DNA of 64,000 nucleotides, taken from a virus. Its lineage: Duplodnaviria > Heunggongvirae > Uroviricota > Caudoviricetes. The number at the start of each line of letters is the position of its first letter. The stretch's first letter is position 1. This document shows positions 2,835 to 52,905 of this stretch, in pieces. The position numbers were made by a program, and so were the translations under genes. The stretch lies in IMG/VR virus record IMGVR_UViG_3300029468_000001. One strand, written 5' to 3'. The notes below the pieces were generated by a model. That model saw nothing but the letters and a program-made list of their open reading frames with translations. It did not search any database and had not been told where the DNA came from.

Positions 2835-3113
2835 TTACAATTTTCGTATTCCCTTCTCAGCAAATAATATTGTTTTCTCTTTATTTTTATCTTGCGTTTT
2901 TAACGTAGACATTATAAAGTTTTTATTATATGTTATCGGAAGTCCTGTTGTAATAGCTTTAATCCCACAAGTTACACTTATTGGAATAGCTTCACAATCA
3001 GGCGATCTCGTATCTAAATCAAATGAGGAAAATAACACATTTTCGCCACCGTTTTTCTTATACTCAGTTAACAATTTTATAGCTTCATCTACGGACACAA
3101 TTCTTCCACTCAT
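2835..3113 (-). CDS. hypothetical protein
   Basis: ORF overlaps the stop of the MazF-like gene; GGAGG RBS. Confidence 0.65.
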   Translation of the reverse strand: MSGRIVSVDEAIKLLTEYKKNGGENVLFSSFDLDTRSPDCEAIPISVTCGIKAITTGLPITYNKNFIMSTLKTQDKNKEKTILFAEKGIRKL

Positions 3114-3499
3114 GCTAATTCCTCCACTCTGATTTTCTTTTTACCATATAAGTTTGCAAGGAAACATTTTTCTACTAAAAGCCTATCCTCTTCATTGTCA
3201 ATGTTTCCCCATTTTTCTACTACGTCACGTTTATCAATGGTGAAAATCTGTTCCCCTAAAACCATTGAGTCACATTTTAAACCATTAGATTTACTAGCTT
3301 TAATTACTTCGTGAGTGGGCTGCTCAACCTTTTTAATTTTACTGGTTAAGCACATGACAATCAAAGTAGGAGCAAACTTATTTCCAGAATCATTCTGGAT
3401 TACAACAACAGGTCTTTCGATCTGCTGAACGTGTGATTTAGCTGATGTATTAACATTTGTTTTGACATAAAGAATATCAAATATATTAAACTCCATCAT
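3110..3499 (-). CDS. PemK/MazF-family endoribonuclease-like protein
   Basis: RPVVVIQNDSGN...LTSK...EQIFTIDK motifs. Confidence 0.85.
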   Translation of the reverse strand: MMEFNIFDILYVKTNVNTSAKSHVQQIERPVVVIQNDSGNKFAPTLIVMCLTSKIKKVEQPTHEVIKASKSNGLKCDSMVLGEQIFTIDKRDVVEKWGNIDNEEDRLLVEKCFLANLYGKKKIRVEELA

Positions 3500-3650
3500 A
3501 TCGTGTGCAGCTCCTTTCTTTATCTTATGAGCCTATTATATTACTCTTTAGATTAGATGTCAAGATATAATCTAAAGATTTAATCTATAAATCAATTTAT
3601 TTATCTCAAGTTCTATGCTATAATACAATTTAGATACGGAGGGATGTATT

Positions 3651-4052
3651 ATGATGAAACTTGAGGTTAAAAGGTATGTAGATGAGAATTATAAAAACAT
3701 TAATCAATTTGCTGTCGCACTTGGAATAGGCTACCAAGCAGCTTGTAAAATCTACAATGGCGAAACTACAAAAATCGCATTTGATACACTTGAAAAAATG
3801 TGCGAATTATTTAATTGTACCCCAAATGATTTATTAATTTCAACTAAGCAACCGCAAAAGAAAAAGAATATAATTAGGGTTTATCATTCACAAAATCAGA
3901 AAAATAATAAAAATAATACTGACGCTTATGTATCTGACTCTAATAATGAACTCAAAAAGGCAATAGACAAAGCAACGCCAAATATAAATCAAATATTCTA
4001 TAATATAATGTTGGATGTATTAAACTCAAACAAGAAGGACGATGATAAATAA
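3651..4052 (+). CDS. Xre/Cro-C1 HTH regulator (candidate repressor)
   Basis: HTH ending TLEKMCELFNCTPNDLL; divergent from the MazF-like gene. Confidence 0.8.
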   Translation: MMKLEVKRYVDENYKNINQFAVALGIGYQAACKIYNGETTKIAFDTLEKMCELFNCTPNDLLISTKQPQKKKNIIRVYHSQNQKNNKNNTDAYVSDSNNELKKAIDKATPNINQIFYNIMLDVLNSNKKDDDK

Positions 4053-4105
4053 TCATCGCCCATACATACGCAACATAAAATTTAAAAAAACAACCTTTCA
4101 TCTAA

Positions 4106-4639
4106 TCATTCCAAATCGTCAATAAGTTTCTTTACACGTTCAATCTCTTCTGCTGTATGTGGTGTTCCACCAGCGTTCATATCAATATACCATTGCAATA
4201 CTTCTCGTTCTGTCTTTAAATCATTCACATTCAATTTTACAGTATGACTATTTAACATCGCTAAATCCGTATACTCATTGAAATATGATCCAAATACTTT
4301 GATTTCGTTATTGATAAATCTGCAAATAGCAGTCAATCTTTGCAATCCATCTACACACACAAAATCATTGTATGCTCCATCTGGAACAGACCAATGCCAT
4401 GATGGGCAATTAAAGTATATGATATTTCCGCTTTTACCACCTTTAAGAAAGAACTCCAACCATGCAATCTGCTGTTCCTCTGTCCATACATGTCCTCTCT
4501 GGAAATCTGGATTAAGCTGCAAGTTCATATCTTCTTCCATATCTTTAATCCATCTAGGAACTCTGCTTATATTTACATCGCATTGGTAGTTACCATCTCT
4601 TGTAAATTGTGGTATATCCTTAAATTTTGTATACTTCAT
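4106..4639 (-). CDS. DUF262 (ParB-like) domain protein
   Basis: PDFQRGHVW and VDGLQRLT motifs; start placed at MKYTKF. Confidence 0.8.
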   Translation of the reverse strand: MKYTKFKDIPQFTRDGNYQCDVNISRVPRWIKDMEEDMNLQLNPDFQRGHVWTEEQQIAWLEFFLKGGKSGNIIYFNCPSWHWSVPDGAYNDFVCVDGLQRLTAICRFINNEIKVFGSYFNEYTDLAMLNSHTVKLNVNDLKTEREVLQWYIDMNAGGTPHTAEEIERVKKLIDDLE

Positions 4640-46497: not shown

Positions 46498-47514
46498 TTG
46501 AGATTGTCTAAAAGAGGACGAATTTATAATAGTTTTTATACAGATGAATTATGGGAGCAAGTAAATAAATCTAATAAACGGATTCTTGATGACTTCCTTG
46601 CAGAATATAAACAAAGAAAAATGAGTAAGGGGACAATTGCAGGTTATCATAATGATTTACGCATTATCATGATCTATATACTGAAAGAATTGGACAACCG
46701 ATGTATTTTAGAGTTAAAGAAAAAGGATTTTCGTGGTCTAAGTTTATATTTTACAGAAGAATGTAATATGTCCGCGGCTAGGACTAATAGATTAAAAAGT
46801 TCAGTAAACAGTATGTTGACATTTTGTGAAGAAGATGATGATTACGATTATGAAATTAATTTTGCAAAGAAAGTAAGAGGTATTCCAAAAACAAGAGTTA
46901 AGGATGACGATGATGACTTTTTCTTTACTTATGATGAATTTATTAAAGTACGTAATATTTTAGTTGAAAAAGAAAAATGGCAATTAGCAGTTCTTTGGAG
47001 TTTAGGATTTGATTCTGCTGGACGAAAAAATGAATTATTCCAGGTTCAAAAATATGGGTTACTTGAAGGAAATAAGACAAATATAGTAATAGGCAAAAGA
47101 GGTAAAAAGTTCCCATTAGTATATTTAGATGATACAAAGGAACTTATTGGTAAATATTTAGAATGGCGTGGTGATGATGATATTGATTCATTATGGATAA
47201 AGGGTACTGGTGAGAACAAGGAAGCTATAACTGATCCAGATGTTTTATATAATCGTATAGTTTCAATATCAAAAATTCTGTCTGATGTTAGAGGCGAAGA
47301 ATGCAATATCTTTACCCACACAATGCGTCATAGTAGAGTTGAATGTCTATTACAAGGGGAAGATGATAGACTCAAAAATCCAGATGGCACAAATAGAAAG
47401 TACACTCTTGATGAAGTAAAGGTATTATGTCATCATAGCGATATTTCTACCACGTCTTCTTATGCGAAAAATCATGACATGGATACAATTAACGATATGT
47501 TTGGATTTTCATAA
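46498..47514 (+). CDS. XerD-like tyrosine recombinase
   Basis: GRKNE (R), HTMRH, CHHSD, SSYAK (Y). Confidence 0.85.
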   Translation: MRLSKRGRIYNSFYTDELWEQVNKSNKRILDDFLAEYKQRKMSKGTIAGYHNDLRIIMIYILKELDNRCILELKKKDFRGLSLYFTEECNMSAARTNRLKSSVNSMLTFCEEDDDYDYEINFAKKVRGIPKTRVKDDDDDFFFTYDEFIKVRNILVEKEKWQLAVLWSLGFDSAGRKNELFQVQKYGLLEGNKTNIVIGKRGKKFPLVYLDDTKELIGKYLEWRGDDDIDSLWIKGTGENKEAITDPDVLYNRIVSISKILSDVRGEECNIFTHTMRHSRVECLLQGEDDRLKNPDGTNRKYTLDEVKVLCHHSDISTTSSYAKNHDMDTINDMFGFS

Positions 47515-47781
47515 TCCCCAAAGCCCGTAGTGTAGACCAAACACACCAATATGGAAACAAGCGCACGACATCGGACTGTCAAAACCGCTTCGGGCAAATA
47601 CCTATCTTTCTATATATTTTTCTTGCTTCATATTTACTCTTCAAAGAGACATAATTTTTCATATGATCTCTTCTCCTGAAAAGGGCAGCTTACTACTGCC
47701 CTATCTAAAAGTAAACTTGTCCTTTACAATATTTTCCAATTGTGATAATGTAAAAATATCAAAAAATTGGAGGTGTTATAT

Positions 47782-48759
47782 ATGGAGTTCAACAGAAAGA
47801 CACAAACTGTCAAGTCATTTGCAAGAGATATGAAAAATGAAAAATACAATATGTTCCACAAACTGCAACGTAAAGAAGGTCAATGGAAGAATTATGAGCA
47901 AAGCTTATTAATCGACTCAATGCTTCGCAACTATCCTGTTGATCCTATTCGTTCAGAAGAAAAAGAAGATAAAATCAGATATGTATTTGATGGGGTTCAG
48001 CGTAGCACAACAATCAGAGATTTCTTAGCTGATGGTTTCAAATTAAATCAAAAGCTGAAACCAGTGGCAATTGAAGGCACTGTATATAACATTGCAGGTA
48101 AGAAGTTCTCACAGTTGGATGAAGTTGTCCAGGATAAAATTAACGACTATGAAATGATACAGTATATCTTTTCTGATTGTACAGATGAAGATATTCGTGA
48201 AATGTTCCGTAGACAGAATGGTGGTAAACCATTATCAAATACTCAGAAGAGAAAATCATTAGAGAGTGATAAAGTTAGCGCAATTATTTTTGACATTGCA
48301 AATCATCCATTCTTTGTAAAAGTGTTATCTCCAACACAGTTAAAGAAAGATGTTGCGAATGATATTGTGCGACAGACACTTATGCTGATTAATACTACAG
48401 ATGATAATGATTTTACATCATTTAGAGCAAAAGATATTGATGCATTTGTAGAATGGTACAATGAGCATGTTGATGAAAAAGATATTATTATATTGAAATC
48501 TGCTCTGTCATTCTTAGATGAAAAATTTGCAGAGAAACTTAATCTCAAGTCAACTTCTCTTCCGATGATGTTATATGCTGCATATACATGTGTGAAGAAC
48601 GAAAAGGACTTTGATGAATTTATAAATATTGTGCAGGCATTTGTAAACAGCTATGGTGATAATATGGATTATATTCAGTATTGCACCAGTGGTACATCTT
48701 CTGCTCAGTCTGTCCAAGGAAGATTTAACTATTGGAAGAATCTTTGCAAGGGATTATAA
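47782..48759 (+). CDS. DUF262 domain protein
   Basis: LQRKEGQW, LIDSML, FDGVQR, FRRQNGG. Confidence 0.8.
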   Translation: MEFNRKTQTVKSFARDMKNEKYNMFHKLQRKEGQWKNYEQSLLIDSMLRNYPVDPIRSEEKEDKIRYVFDGVQRSTTIRDFLADGFKLNQKLKPVAIEGTVYNIAGKKFSQLDEVVQDKINDYEMIQYIFSDCTDEDIREMFRRQNGGKPLSNTQKRKSLESDKVSAIIFDIANHPFFVKVLSPTQLKKDVANDIVRQTLMLINTTDDNDFTSFRAKDIDAFVEWYNEHVDEKDIIILKSALSFLDEKFAEKLNLKSTSLPMMLYAAYTCVKNEKDFDEFINIVQAFVNSYGDNMDYIQYCTSGTSSAQSVQGRFNYWKNLCKGL

Positions 48760-48818: not shown

Positions 48819-49090
48819 GTATATAAAATGGAGATACGAAAATGTATAATAAATATATTAATCAAACATAATGATAGTAAAACACTGTGGCAATTATATG
48901 GTACTACCACTTCTGCTGCATCAAATACGGAAACATTTACACCATTCGAGACAGATGATTTAGAAAAATTAAAAGCAGAAGTTATTCGATTGGATGCAAC
49001 GTATGGTCATGAAAACATTAAAGTTGTAAAAACTATTGAATATACAGTGGATGTAACTATTTCAGAAGATAAATAAGGAGGTCTCAAACA

Positions 49091-49339
49091 GTGGCAGCTA
49101 ATTTATTAAAAGTTGGCAATGATCCAAATTCAGCAATTAAAACATTTTGCGTAGATACTATTGAAGAAATTGCAAAACTTCCTACCATGGAACATGGTGC
49201 GACAGGCGATTTTGCAAGTATTCCTGGTATGGACGCTCCTGCTCCAATGGGAAGTCAAGCTATCGTAGGAAATGAATCAGGTACAGTGAAAATCTATATG
49301 CTGTTTTCATTTGGTTGGAAAGATACAGGCACAGAATAA
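49091..49339 (+). CDS. hypothetical protein
   Basis: AAGGAGG RBS. Confidence 0.65.
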   Translation: MAANLLKVGNDPNSAIKTFCVDTIEEIAKLPTMEHGATGDFASIPGMDAPAPMGSQAIVGNESGTVKIYMLFSFGWKDTGTE

Positions 49340-49590
49340 TGGACGTATTATCTTACATTATTGCCAGTAGACTTCTCTCTTGCTCTGGTGGAAATGGGGC
49401 AAATATTAAACTAGATGAAAATGGAAATATTATTACAGATGAAGATGTGGCATTATATGTTGATTTTCCTACTGCAAGTTTAATGACTGACGGAGATATA
49501 TTTTCAGTCACAGATAGTTATTTAATCGCTAAAATTATTAGTAATGTTGCTGAGTCAAATAAGAAAGCATGGATTTATTCTATGTTATAA
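49339..49590 (+). CDS. hypothetical protein
   Basis: ATG overlaps the preceding stop (MDVLSYIIAS...). Confidence 0.55.
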   Translation: MDVLSYIIASRLLSCSGGNGANIKLDENGNIITDEDVALYVDFPTASLMTDGDIFSVTDSYLIAKIISNVAESNKKAWIYSML

Positions 49591-49923
49591 GAGTCATTCA
49601 CGATAATGTGGGTGGCTCTTTTATTGTTGTCTTATACAGGGTGATTATCGTACCCTAGATGCACTGTTATTGTTTCTTATATTTTTTTAAATTTACTTTC
49701 TATCTGAAAACAGAACGACTATTGTATTGCCCTCATATTATATAGTCATTCTGTATAAGACAATAAGGCATTTCCAGATTGTGAAATGATTGTAATAAAA
49801 AATAAAAGGAGCTTCCTGTATAATAAAAATCGTGGATGTTGAAAATTGAAAATACCTCAGAGTACAATAAGACTACTGACTGGCAGGTTAGTAAAAATCT
49901 TATTGAACAGAGAGGTATCTACA

Positions 49924-51216
49924 ATGAAGTCTAACACACAGAACGCAAAAATTGAAGCTATTACAGAAAAAACTTTGGTACTCGGGATTGATGTCGGAAG
50001 TGAGACGCACTACGCCAGAGCTTTTGATTACAGAGGAATCGAGTATTCAAAGAAACCTTTTAAATTTAGTAACACAGAGGCTGGATTTGTGACATTTAAG
50101 GAATGGATCCTGGACCTCAAAGAAAGACATGAGAAGGATAAGGTGGTTCCAGGTATGGAACCGACCGGGCATTACTGGTTCAATCTTGGAAAGTTTCTAC
50201 AGGATAATGAAATGAAACCGGTTCTTGTAAATCCTCACCATGTGAAAAAATCAAAAGAACTCGACGACAATAATCCAACTAAAAATGACCGTAAGGATCC
50301 GAAAGTTATAGCAGGATTAGTTAGAGAGGGACGTTACATGATCCCATACCTGCCGGATGGTGTTTACGCTGATCTTAGAACAGCATCAAACATAAGATTC
50401 CAGTTACAGGTGGAACTTACAAGAATTCAAAACAGGATTAGTCGTTGGTTCAATATATATTTTCCTGAATATAAGACGGTATACGGAAAGCCGGATGCCA
50501 AGAGCGGAATGCTAATCCTTAAAGCAGCACCACTCCCTGAAGATATCCTGACGTTAGGTATCGATGGAGTGAACCAAATCTGGCGTGATGCGAAGTTAAG
50601 AGCAGTTGGAAAAGCAAGGGCGAAGACCCTGATAGAAGCTGCAGAGCACAGTGTCGGAAGCAAAGAAGGAGCAGTATCTGCAAGAATGGAAATCCGAATG
50701 CTTCTGGAGGATTATGAATCCAGAAACATACGTCTTCAGGAAGTTATGACTCTGATTGAAGGGTTGGTAAAACAGATTCCGATGGCTGAGAAGCTGTTGG
50801 AAATCAAAGGTGTGGGAATCAAGACAGTGTCAGGATTCCTTGCAGAAGTAGGTGATATCAGCCGTTTTAACACGCCGAAAGAACTGCAGAAGCTTGCAGG
50901 GTTGGCATTGGTTGAAAGTAGTTCGGGAAAGCACAAGGGCGAGACAACAATAAGCAGACGAGGTCGAAAGAGACTCAGATACCTGCTCTTTGAGGTTGCA
51001 ATGTCGCTTGTGGCGAAGAACCCGGAGTTCAGAGAGCTCCATAATTATTACACAACCAGAAGGCTGAATCCGTTGAAGAAAATGCAGTCACTTATGGCGA
51101 TTGCAGCCAAGCTGATACGAGTCTTTTATGCCATGCTGACAAAAGGTGTGGATTATGATCCGAAAAAGATGGTCAGTGATATCAAGAGACCGGTAGTTTA
51201 TCTACAGGCTGTGTAA
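49924..51216 (+). CDS. IS110 DEDD recombinase/transposase
   Basis: GIDVG, EPTGHYW, KNDRKD and C-terminal SSGK motifs. Confidence 0.92.
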   Translation: MKSNTQNAKIEAITEKTLVLGIDVGSETHYARAFDYRGIEYSKKPFKFSNTEAGFVTFKEWILDLKERHEKDKVVPGMEPTGHYWFNLGKFLQDNEMKPVLVNPHHVKKSKELDDNNPTKNDRKDPKVIAGLVREGRYMIPYLPDGVYADLRTASNIRFQLQVELTRIQNRISRWFNIYFPEYKTVYGKPDAKSGMLILKAAPLPEDILTLGIDGVNQIWRDAKLRAVGKARAKTLIEAAEHSVGSKEGAVSARMEIRMLLEDYESRNIRLQEVMTLIEGLVKQIPMAEKLLEIKGVGIKTVSGFLAEVGDISRFNTPKELQKLAGLALVESSSGKHKGETTISRRGRKRLRYLLFEVAMSLVAKNPEFRELHNYYTTRRLNPLKKMQSLMAIAAKLIRVFYAMLTKGVDYDPKKMVSDIKRPVVYLQAV

Positions 51217-51344
51217 GAAAGACAAGTAACTATAATGGAGGCTGTCATGTGGACAGCCACTGGATCAAGCAGAATGTAACAGATAACGTCCACTGATCAC
51301 AGTGCTGGAACAGGAAGCGAGTCAGTAATCAATAATACAAAGAA

Positions 51345-51500
51345 TGAGCCAGTAGTCGGCAGAAATAGTCACCATGGGGCATATGACCCCGTTAAGGAGC
51401 ATAGCTGACACCCTGGTTATGGGCAGGCAGGACGAAGGAAGTTAGGACCTCTGGAGACAGAGATGATCCTGGTGGATATAGGAGGTTAGCTGCCATAGAG
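51345..51500 (+). ncRNA. predicted IS110 bridge RNA in the right end
   Basis: Two stem-closed internal loops whose strands match target (TCACC, TAAGGAG) and donor (AGGAAG, ATAGGAG); ends approximate. Confidence 0.75.
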
Positions 51501-51687
51501 GGATGGGGATACACAAGGCCAGTAAAGCGGAAATCAATGACGTTTTATTTCGTATACCCTCTAACCACTATTTCAGTACCTGATACATAGAAATGCTCAT
51601 AGCTGTGGCTTATTCACTGAGATATGAAAGGTTGAAAAACCTTGAATTTTCAATAAAAAACATTTGATTATATGAGGAGGTGGCGTT

Positions 51688-52905
51688 ATGCCTACTAAGA
51701 AAACTGGTACAACGCCAGCAAATGAACAAAAAGGAAAAAAGGTCTGTACTTGCTGTCATCATGAGAAACGGTTAGTCTATGGATTTTATATAAGTAAATC
51801 ACCATTATTTTCAATTGACGGGCGATTACCAGTTTGTAAGGATTGTATTGCTGATATGTGCGTTGATTCAGATACAGGAGAAATTAATGAGGTTGAATTA
51901 AATAAATGTCTTAGAAAATTTGACAAACCTTATTATAAAAATGATTTGATGAGTGCATATGAGCAATTTGAAAGAGAACATGCTTTTATTGATAAGGAAA
52001 ATATCAAAAAATATGGTAGAGATATTATAAAGTTATATTTTAAGAATATTAGTATGCGGCAATGTATCAATAAAAGTTACGAAGATTCTGAGAAAGACGG
52101 ATTTATTCATCAAAATACAAATACAGTTAAAAGCAAAATTAAAAAAATTGACACCATTTTCGCAGATGTGAATAATCCATCTCCTGTAATTGAAGATAAT
52201 GAAAACAATGAATGTGAAAACCCAACATCTGCATTTCAAAAAAAAGAAGAACCTATTATATTAGCAAATGATGATAATTTTAAGGTCACACCTGAAATTA
52301 TTGATCTATTTGGCGAAGGTTATACGACTTCAATGTATAAAAAAATGCAAGAAAAATACGATAAGTTAAAAATCAATTATACATTGCAAACCAACATTCA
52401 CCAAGAAGCTCTTGCTACATATGTAAGATTTAAAGTTCAAGAAGAACTTGCTACTGCAAGAGGTGACGTAACTGAGGCGAAGAAATGGTACGATGCAGCT
52501 CAATCTTCTGCTCAAGATGCAAAGCTTACTCCAAAACAGCTTACGAAAGCAGATTTAGATAGTGGAGTTACAAGTATGTCAGAATTAACAAAAGCTCTTG
52601 AACAGGCAGTTGATGTTATTAAAATTCTTCCTCGGTTTAAATATAGACCAAATGATGCTGTTGATTTTAATATATGGTGCTATGTTAATTATGAACGTAG
52701 ACTTAATGGACAACCAGAAGTCGCTTATGAAGATGTATATAAATTTTATGATGAGAAGAAGAAACAATATATTGAACAAAATGGCGATCCTTATGGTATT
52801 TTCTCAAATGATACAACCGAAAAAAATAGAGATACTGTAAAAACATTTATTAAATTGCCAGATGATTATGATGATTTAGGTGGTGAAGATAATGAAAACA
52901 CATGA
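51688..52905 (+). CDS. putative terminase small subunit / packaging-associated protein
   Basis: N-terminal CxxC...CKDC; directly upstream of TerL. Confidence 0.55.
   Translation: MPTKKTGTTPANEQKGKKVCTCCHHEKRLVYGFYISKSPLFSIDGRLPVCKDCIADMCVDSDTGEINEVELNKCLRKFDKPYYKNDLMSAYEQFEREHAFIDKENIKKYGRDIIKLYFKNISMRQCINKSYEDSEKDGFIHQNTNTVKSKIKKIDTIFADVNNPSPVIEDNENNECENPTSAFQKKEEPIILANDDNFKVTPEIIDLFGEGYTTSMYKKMQEKYDKLKINYTLQTNIHQEALATYVRFKVQEELATARGDVTEAKKWYDAAQSSAQDAKLTPKQLTKADLDSGVTSMSELTKALEQAVDVIKILPRFKYRPNDAVDFNIWCYVNYERRLNGQPEVAYEDVYKFYDEKKKQYIEQNGDPYGIFSNDTTEKNRDTVKTFIKLPDDYDDLGGEDNENT

Follow-up and report, generated by a model that had tools for sequence, protein, structure and literature searches.

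Two kinds of guide RNA, bridge RNA (PMC11208160) and seekRNA (PMC11187229), were described in 2024 for insertion sequences of the IS110 family. According to the first report, the RNA of IS621 has left guides that pair with the bottom strand and right guides that pair with the top strand, core included, and excision of the element rebuilds a promoter. The second report describes IS1111-type elements (ISEc11, ISKpn4, ISPa11) with a non-coding region 3' of the transposase gene, in which the segment complementary to the top strand comes first, with transposases of 330-350 amino acids (aa) bearing a GL-P----S/TG motif, and with sub-terminal inverted repeats of 7-17 bp; it also mentions that some IS110-type elements form a subgroup whose non-coding region lies on the 3' side. 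Here we analyse 64,000 nucleotides (nt) of a Caudoviricetes gut phage (IMG/VR record IMGVR_UViG_3300029468_000001; this whole stretch is referred to as the window), which carry a complete IS110-family insertion sequence of 1,868 bp at positions 49812-51679 on the + strand. Very probably, this intact element lies inside the Shine-Dalgarno (SD) sequence of the phage gene at 51688 and encodes, 3' of its transposase gene, a two-loop RNA that guides the transposase to (A/T)(A)AGGAG|G sites.

49924..51216, + strand: transposase gene, 430 aa, with DEDD (RuvC-like) and Tnp domains (Pfam, NCBIfam, structure match)

The transposase matches both Pfam domains of the family (PF01548, E 1.7e-28, profile positions 1-155 of 155; PF02371, E 4.9e-25) and the NCBIfam model NF033542, 'IS110 family RNA-guided transposase' (233 bits; cut-off 140). 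When it was searched with phmmer against solved structures, IS621 (chain 8wt6_A, E 3.2e-7) and ISCro4 aligned to the C-terminal domain only, and the SG motif, LAGLALVESSSGKHKG in the transposase, was aligned with FAGLTPRRYESGSSVRG of IS621 such that the SG pairs fell one or two columns out of register. Much closer is the representative in row 236 of Supplementary Table 1 of Durrant et al. 2024 (the Firmicutes cluster IS650;IS653;ISChy2;ISCsa4 in the tabulated row), whose RuvC and Tnp segments are nearly identical to those of the window transposase, placing the element in a catalogued group.

Compared with IS621, the element has the same DEDD + Tnp recombinase, the same four guide roles, a dinucleotide core (CT there, AG here) and a promoter predicted on joining of the ends. 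It differs in that its RNA lies downstream and not upstream of the transposase gene, in that the guide order within each loop is right then left from 5' to 3', and in the length of the transposase (430 aa against a 328-aa chain); moreover, the left donor half of the element nearly copies the left target half, and the target is a translation signal found before many genes. With the IS1111 type, the element shares the 3' non-coding region (51217-51679), a top-strand-complementary guide placed 5' of the bottom-strand guide, and matches that overlap at the insertion point. In contrast to that type, its transposase has 430 aa and the motif GLALVESSSG, with L where the IS1111 motif has P, which places it outside IS1111 by length and motif, and clear sub-terminal repeats are not conserved. 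The likeliest home of the element is the subgroup of IS110-type elements whose non-coding region is likewise downstream. A further member of the family, IS900 of Mycobacterium avium subsp. paratuberculosis, reportedly targets translation-initiation signals, as Doran and colleagues are said to have found in 1997. In IS900, the transposase gene and the target gene point in opposite directions. The window element resembles IS900 in its insertion at translation-initiation signals and differs from it in that its transposase is co-oriented with the target gene and no antisense frame spans the element. The hed frame of IS900, as described in PMC8141618, is an open reading frame (ORF) opposite the transposase strand that lacks a ribosome-binding site (RBS) and a start codon of its own; no such frame is present within 49812-51679, where the longest minus-strand ORF has 78 aa. 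Our literature searches, which did not extend to ISfinder, the description of IS650/IS653 or Durrant Supplementary Table 5, found no bridge-RNA account of IS900 and no paper tying a bridge or seek RNA guide to the SD sequence; nor did any literature on the insertion sites of IS650, IS653, ISChy2 or ISCsa4 turn up, ISfinder and the original descriptions lying outside the search. The kind of element is already known (bridge RNA/seekRNA, catalogued cluster), and the notable part is its target.

The sequences that meet at the two ends of the element are the following.

49805..49811, + strand: left target half AAAGGAG of the phage RBS (sequence, empty site in contig L180, 100-site left-flank consensus)
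49810-11, + strand: core AG, common with the right end of the element; last two bases of the left target half
49812..49819, + strand: left-end terminus CTTCCTGT, the right donor half, read by the donor-loop 5' guide (donor covariation)
51672..51679, + strand: right-end terminus ATGAGGAG, comprising left donor half and core (sequence; kept in relatives)
51680..51687, + strand: right target half GTGGCGTT, the spacer between SD and start codon (sequence, L180)
51688..52905, + strand: downstream phage gene, 405 aa, PHROG 3314 (function unknown), E 1.3e-40

The left junction reads AAAAGGAG|CTTCCTGT at 49811/49812 and the right junction ATGAGGAG|GTGGCGTTATG at 51679/51680, and in most full relatives among 80 loci from genome contigs the BLAST alignment stops exactly at element bases 1 and 1868. 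The element has no terminal inverted repeats: it begins CTTCCTGT... and finishes ...ATGAGGAG, and its two junctions have no more than a short core in common, AG in general and AGGAG here. Because these five bases occur at both junctions, the crossover point within them is ambiguous, but copies with a left flank ending GAAG (L012) or CGAG (L042) narrow the common core to AG, which reads CT on the opposite strand. By sequence this is the core of IS621, and the same mechanism may by analogy apply.

The initial annotation, whose positions and sequence strings all agree with the window, had predicted that removing the element restores the RBS of the gene behind it. A related phage contig, L180, carries exactly this unoccupied site, AAAAGGAG|GTGGCGTTATG. 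Retrieved from viral contigs with the unchanged 31-base left flank as query (one contig matched), it reads ...AATAAAAGGAGGTGGCGTTATGCCT without the element and agrees with the window in 397 of 431 left-hand and 393 of 400 right-hand bases. It had also been proposed that the right end rebuilds the SD, and this is what the sequence gives: GAGGAG together with the G of the flank forms a full Shine-Dalgarno for the downstream gene, with its spacing unchanged. One might suppose that assembly through a multi-copy repeat created a chimera and that the insertion into the phage is an artefact, given that the element is multi-copy in gut bacteria and that in an isolate run its depth was 388.7 against 135-160 for the flanks, of which there were several. 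However, both flanks are adjacent and collinear in L180 and in G001, a phage record of ~180 kb with terminal repeats that the window resembles (27% of sampled words in common), and the junctions lie exactly at the target motif of the family, so that we find a chimera barely credible. Two copies at other sites, L100 and L101, are 99.95% and 99.84% identical to the element, respectively; such identity (99.9%) to copies elsewhere in gut metagenomes makes a recent insertion likely, and on the same sequence comparison the element likely jumped into the phage from a Lachnospiraceae host.

Insertion sites were compared across 177 loci. Genome contigs, taken from one genome per species, supplied the best 80 of 170 confirmed relatives, metagenome contigs the best 80 of 576, and viral contigs a further 17. 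Among the 178 sources including the window, the donor-loop anchor was found in 148, the right end in 131 and the left end in 133; the 30 sources without the anchor are truncated contigs, one intron-bearing copy, or divergent copies. Guides could be extracted from 138 copies, 10 being missed by the pattern for the 5' guide. With L168 and L007 (miscalled left ends) and L114 (left flank not ending AG) excluded and identical flanks merged, the final set held 100 unique left flanks and 109 unique right flanks, AG at -2/-1 being required for inclusion.

In these ~100 independent copies, whether from Lachnospiraceae, from gut metagenomes or from viral contigs, insertion occurred after (A/T)(A)AGGAG and before G. 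The left flank ended in GGAG at 98 of the 100 unique sites (G in 98 at both -4 and -3), preceded by A in 68, T in 17 and G in 13 at -5, by A in 76 at -6, and by A in 54 and T in 34 at -7, while on the right +1 was G in 96 of 109 and +2 was T in 50 and A in 33. Collecting the sites of homologous copies, as suggested at the outset, yields an SD-type consensus, and sublineages at 85-100%, 64-72%, 58-61% and 51% protein identity are all at GGAG|G sites. A start codon opening a long frame lay 2-15 nt downstream in 80 of the 113 unique right flanks that were 60 nt or longer (mode 9 nt; ATG 70, GTG 6, TTG 4), compared with 103 of 550 random flank positions, and at all 80 gene-start sites the element had the same orientation as the gene behind it. 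The claim that the element targets strong RBSs genome-wide stands as to the GGAG|G sites, most of them before a gene start, and has to be reworded in one respect: it is the sequence, not the function, that is recognised. Likewise, the claim that it lands without breaking ORFs holds for most sites but not for all. Of 90 reconstructed empty sites, 60 had no open frame of at least 70 codons running into the junction, and at 8 an upstream frame on the plus strand was clipped, ending 3-7 codons past the junction; at the other 22, longer open frames on either strand, which are candidate genes only, run past it.

Comparison of the guides with the flanks, and of the donor loop with the element ends, rests on the following parts of the non-coding region 51217-51679, which lies downstream of the transposase gene.

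51349..51416, + strand: target-binding loop, with basal helix CCAG/CTGG, GTCGGC/GCTGAC, two guides and inner hairpin GGGG/CCCC
51365..51373, + strand: 5' guide ATAGTCACC (right-target guide), complementary to the top strand of core G plus right flank (flank covariation)
51393..51399, + strand: 3' guide TAAGGAG (left-target guide), same sense as left target plus core (flank covariation)
51426..51494, + strand: donor-binding loop, with GGCAG/CTGCC, guide strands and inner hairpin AGGA/TCCT with variable extension
51436..51443, + strand: donor 5' guide AGGAAGTT, complementary to core AG (A-U, G-U) plus left-end CTTCCT (donor covariation)
51478..51484, + strand: donor 3' guide ATAGGAG, its last five bases in the same sense as right-end AGGAG (donor covariation)

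The target loop had been read as programmed for the SD consensus, and across copies the guides indeed track their own flanks at -7 to -5, +2 and +3. We scored guide-flank identity per position against 2000 shuffles, the sites being unique and the guides common by descent. On the left, observed and shuffled identities were 0.66 and 0.42 at -7, 0.86 and 0.65 at -6, and 0.82 and 0.52 at -5 (each reached by 0 of 2000 shuffles), with no excess over shuffles at -8 to -10. On the right, they were 0.51 and 0.40 at +2 (7 of 2000), 0.52 and 0.33 at +3 (0 of 2000) and 0.49 and 0.44 at +4 (143 of 2000), with no excess from +5 onwards. The rare 3' guides that depart from GGAG sit at flanks with the same letters: GAAG in L012 (TAATGAAG), CGAG in L042 (ATAACGAG) and AGAG in L147 (CAAGAGAG). 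The guides of the window copy are programmed for GTTAAGGAG/GTGAC-like sites (the 5' guide strand includes TCACC at 51369-73, and the reverse complement of the guide is GGTGACTAT, compared with G|GTGGCGTT in the flank). The actual site is a 9-bp match, AAGGAG|GTG, with a mismatch at -7 and a possible G-U pair at +4. Since the guides vary among copies, each lineage has its own preferred subset of sites.

These data also bear on the possibility that RBSs are chosen by the protein or through a link to transcription or translation, the RNA complementarity being incidental. Such a choice would accord with the 80 real-looking gene starts, always co-oriented with the element, and with a right guide that explains little, but it does not account for flanks that follow their own guide at -7 to -5, for three rare non-GGAG guides at matching non-GGAG flanks, or for the remaining 33 of 113 sites, which are SD-like without a gene start. 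We consider it very improbable.

Some copies depart from the usual arrangement. The right flank of L124 shows a copy nested in the transposase gene of another copy, at the equivalent of window positions about 50093-50105. L114 (about 880-890) has the right flank found in L141 and a left flank without GGAG, probably through a later rearrangement beside the element. In L168 (1-495) and L007 (1-55), the right end of a more distant relative lies upstream of a standard copy; the target-loop guides of this relative read ..GCTTAAG and ..GATACAGACC, its right end reads ..ACAGAG, and its flank, AAGTTGTATAG, is not an RBS. A relative at a non-RBS flank suggests that the SD anchor is a choice of the clade and not a constraint of the scaffold.

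Both loops drawn in the initial annotation are supported by covariation of their helices. RNAalifold on a MAFFT alignment returned a different, weak structure, and for that reason the pairs were counted on the drawn structure instead, using an alignment of 63 distinct sequences, with 500 shuffles and slid versions of the structure as controls. The drawn structure had 89.0% of cells paired, as opposed to 83.3% in shuffles, and 104 cells changed on both sides, as opposed to 35.3 in shuffles (reached by 0 of 500) and 14-57 in the slid controls; 15 pairs change on both sides, and every helix has at least one of them. Helices 1-3, those of the target loop (stems GTCGGC 51355-60, GCTGAC 51404-09, GGGG 51376-79 and CCCC 51387-90), were paired in 81-93%, with 7 pairs changed on both sides, and helices 4-7, those of the donor loop (GGCAG 51426-30, CTGCC 51490-94, AGGA 51444-47 and TCCT 51467-70), in 75-96%. 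For the donor loop, an alternative basal helix, TATGG/CCATA plus CAG/CTG, which improves the fit of some rows and worsens that of others, may be formed instead. In one copy of sublineage 3 (L076, about 2945-4248), the donor loop is interrupted by a group II intron (RF02005, 154.8 bits, 2962-3183).

That the donor loop matches the junction GAGGAG|CTTCCT, as initially noted, extends well beyond the window: its guides covary with the ends of the element across four sublineages. The 3' strand and the right end pair up as AGGAG/AGGAG in 91 copies, GGGAG/GGGAG in at least 26 and GAGAG/GAGAG in 5, while the 5' strand reads AGGAAG with a left end CTTCCT in at least 99 copies and AGGAAT with (C)ATTCCT in about 17 copies of sublineages 3 and 4; one copy has a matching G-to-A change in both donor guide and end. 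The left halves of donor (GAGGAG) and target (AAGGAG) are almost the same. An RNA of the IS1111 type, a short seekRNA that handles the target only, could do without these matches, the second loop being no donor guide and the ends being read by the protein or through sub-terminal repeats. The downstream position of the non-coding region would suit such an RNA, as would a 12-nt inverted repeat (11 of 12 matching), which the window copy and L020 carry 27 nt inside one end and 26 nt inside the other, and, according to a preprint on CazIS110 (10.1101/2025.10.25.684509), RNA with the target loop only gives partial transfer. Yet the strands of the second loop covary with right and left ends in all four sublineages, whereas the inverted repeat is not kept at matching positions beyond the closest relatives, in other sublineages. 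A target-only RNA is thus unlikely, and we retain the reading in which one loop addresses the target and the other the donor.

Several observations weigh against this two-loop, RNA-guided account and are best considered together. First, 33 of the 113 sites are not at a recognisable gene start, although sites that are SD-like without one fit recognition of sequence and not function. Second, the right guide is weak, with signal at +2 and +3 only and its first core base unpaired (A opposite A), and the shuffle controls ignore relatedness among copies, whose guides are common by descent. Third, fold prediction did not recover the loops: shuffled sequences folded just as stably as the region on its own (z = -0.17), the two loops were missing from the RNAalifold structure (-6.07 kcal/mol), and Rfam gave 0 matches at E up to 1 within 49000-52500. 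Fourth, the transposase is only distantly related to that of IS621, which makes the mechanism carried over from it conjectural. Fifth, in public data the element is found as a contig of 1,853 nt, in three metatranscriptome runs from mouse gut and one isolate DNA run, each with several different flanks on the element; these data, which are contigs only and list no joints, can reveal neither transcription nor RNA ends nor a circle. Finally, the two-loop model does not explain a second segment that is complementary to the left end.

51310..51318, + strand: ACAGGAAGC, exact complement of core G plus left-end terminus CTTCCTGT (repeat search)

Of 12 representatives, 7 carry a 9-10-nt stretch complementary to the left end, a match that no more than 3 of 300 shuffles attain, and in the other 5 it is weak or missing; its letters differ in sublineage 4.

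By analogy with IS621, IS1111 and CazIS110, the RNA would be expressed, probably as the tail of the transposase mRNA, and would associate with the enzyme. The element would leave as a circle or a single-stranded copy, its joined ends forming a promoter, and the RNA would then pair with both strands of target and donor for recombination at the core. Both halves of this predicted promoter can be read at the ends of the element.

49819..49824, + strand: TATAAT, -10 half of the predicted circle-junction promoter (sequence)
51664..51669, + strand: TTGATT, -35 half of the predicted circle-junction promoter (sequence)

Joined, the ends would read TTGATT, 17 nt, TATAAT. Sublineages 1 and 2 keep both hexamers (the -35 place in sublineage 2 reads TTGACT), and the promoter is predicted to form only when the ends join in a circle.

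Because the left guide holds nearly all of the specificity and is fixed on GGAG, hundreds of usable sites per genome result, co-oriented with the gene behind them. The comparison largely shows that this clade freezes one guide on the RBS, lets neighbouring guide positions drift and mimics the RBS with its own end; each insertion would then be translation-neutral for the gene behind. The element represents a natural bridge-type RNA whose target is the signal before a large share of genes and not a rare repeat or a single locus, and comparison of the copies maps its specificity: on the left it reads about 7 bases, core included, and on the right about 3-4, with distal guide positions that drift and insertion sites that follow. 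It offers an explanation at the level of RNA for the old observation of IS110-family elements at translation starts, as well as for a low-cost colonisation of operons and phage genomes, in which the right end gives the downstream gene a new RBS. For the engineering of bridge recombinases, it is a natural case of tolerated looseness in a half-site (compare a 'half-match' preprint, 10.64898/2026.08.31.748434). Each of the two loops displays, in a predicted single-stranded form, a left guide that is itself a perfect SD sequence (target loop AAGGAG, donor loop UAGGAGG). It is conceivable from these letters, if distinctly improbable, that the anti-Shine-Dalgarno tail of the 30S subunit would bind the guide RNA, tying transposition or guide availability to free ribosomes, or that the RNA would act as a ribosome decoy.

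Further features lie within the element, outside the two loops.

49839..49868, + strand: promoter-like TTGAAA, 18 nt, TACAAT, upstream of the transposase gene (consensus scan, 10/12 matches)
49845..49925, + strand: long imperfect hairpin with 28-nt arms, 79% complementary (repeat search)
51288..51306, + strand: conserved 5' stem-loop of the non-coding region, CACTG/CAGTG (40-copy alignment, by eye)
51505..51559, + strand: conserved 3' stem-loop GGGGATAC ... GTATACCC (40-copy alignment, by eye)

The 5' arm of the hairpin contains the promoter-like sequence (such sites are no commoner in the region than in shuffles), and the 3' arm covers the RBS and ATG of the transposase gene; judged from this layout, the hairpin may dampen translation of the transposase from read-through transcripts. 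In the same alignment, the helix of the 5' stem-loop is kept with other letters, CGCC...GGCG, in sublineage 2. At position 51508, a T present in nearly all relatives is replaced by G in the window, so that the 3' stem GGGTATAC/GTATACCC loses one pair.

A search of phage records with the window gave a single partial match, without annotation, and the genes upstream of the element match phage families. The gene at 51688, whose RBS the element occupies, had been described as the first packaging gene. The assignment of the RBS to this gene holds, and its homologues come after an intact AAGGAGGTGGCGTTATG in G001 and in L180. The packaging role is weakly based: the gene itself belongs to PHROG 3314, and the ORF that follows it has only a weak large-terminase match (E about 1e-5), which leaves a packaging function plausible. 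Upstream of the element, 46498-47514 and 47767-48759 encode integrase-like (PHROG 1, E 6e-20) and GmrSD_N proteins, the latter with a restriction-endonuclease domain (PF03235, E 6.6e-12). In G001 (L002 2104-3090, equivalent to window 49626-51679), a gene for a GIY-YIG endonuclease of 328 aa with several helix-turn-helix (HTH) domains sits just upstream of the same RBS, and L180 is without either insert. With the element in the window, the GIY-YIG gene in G001 and an empty site in L180, this spot is a repeated landing place for mobile DNA.

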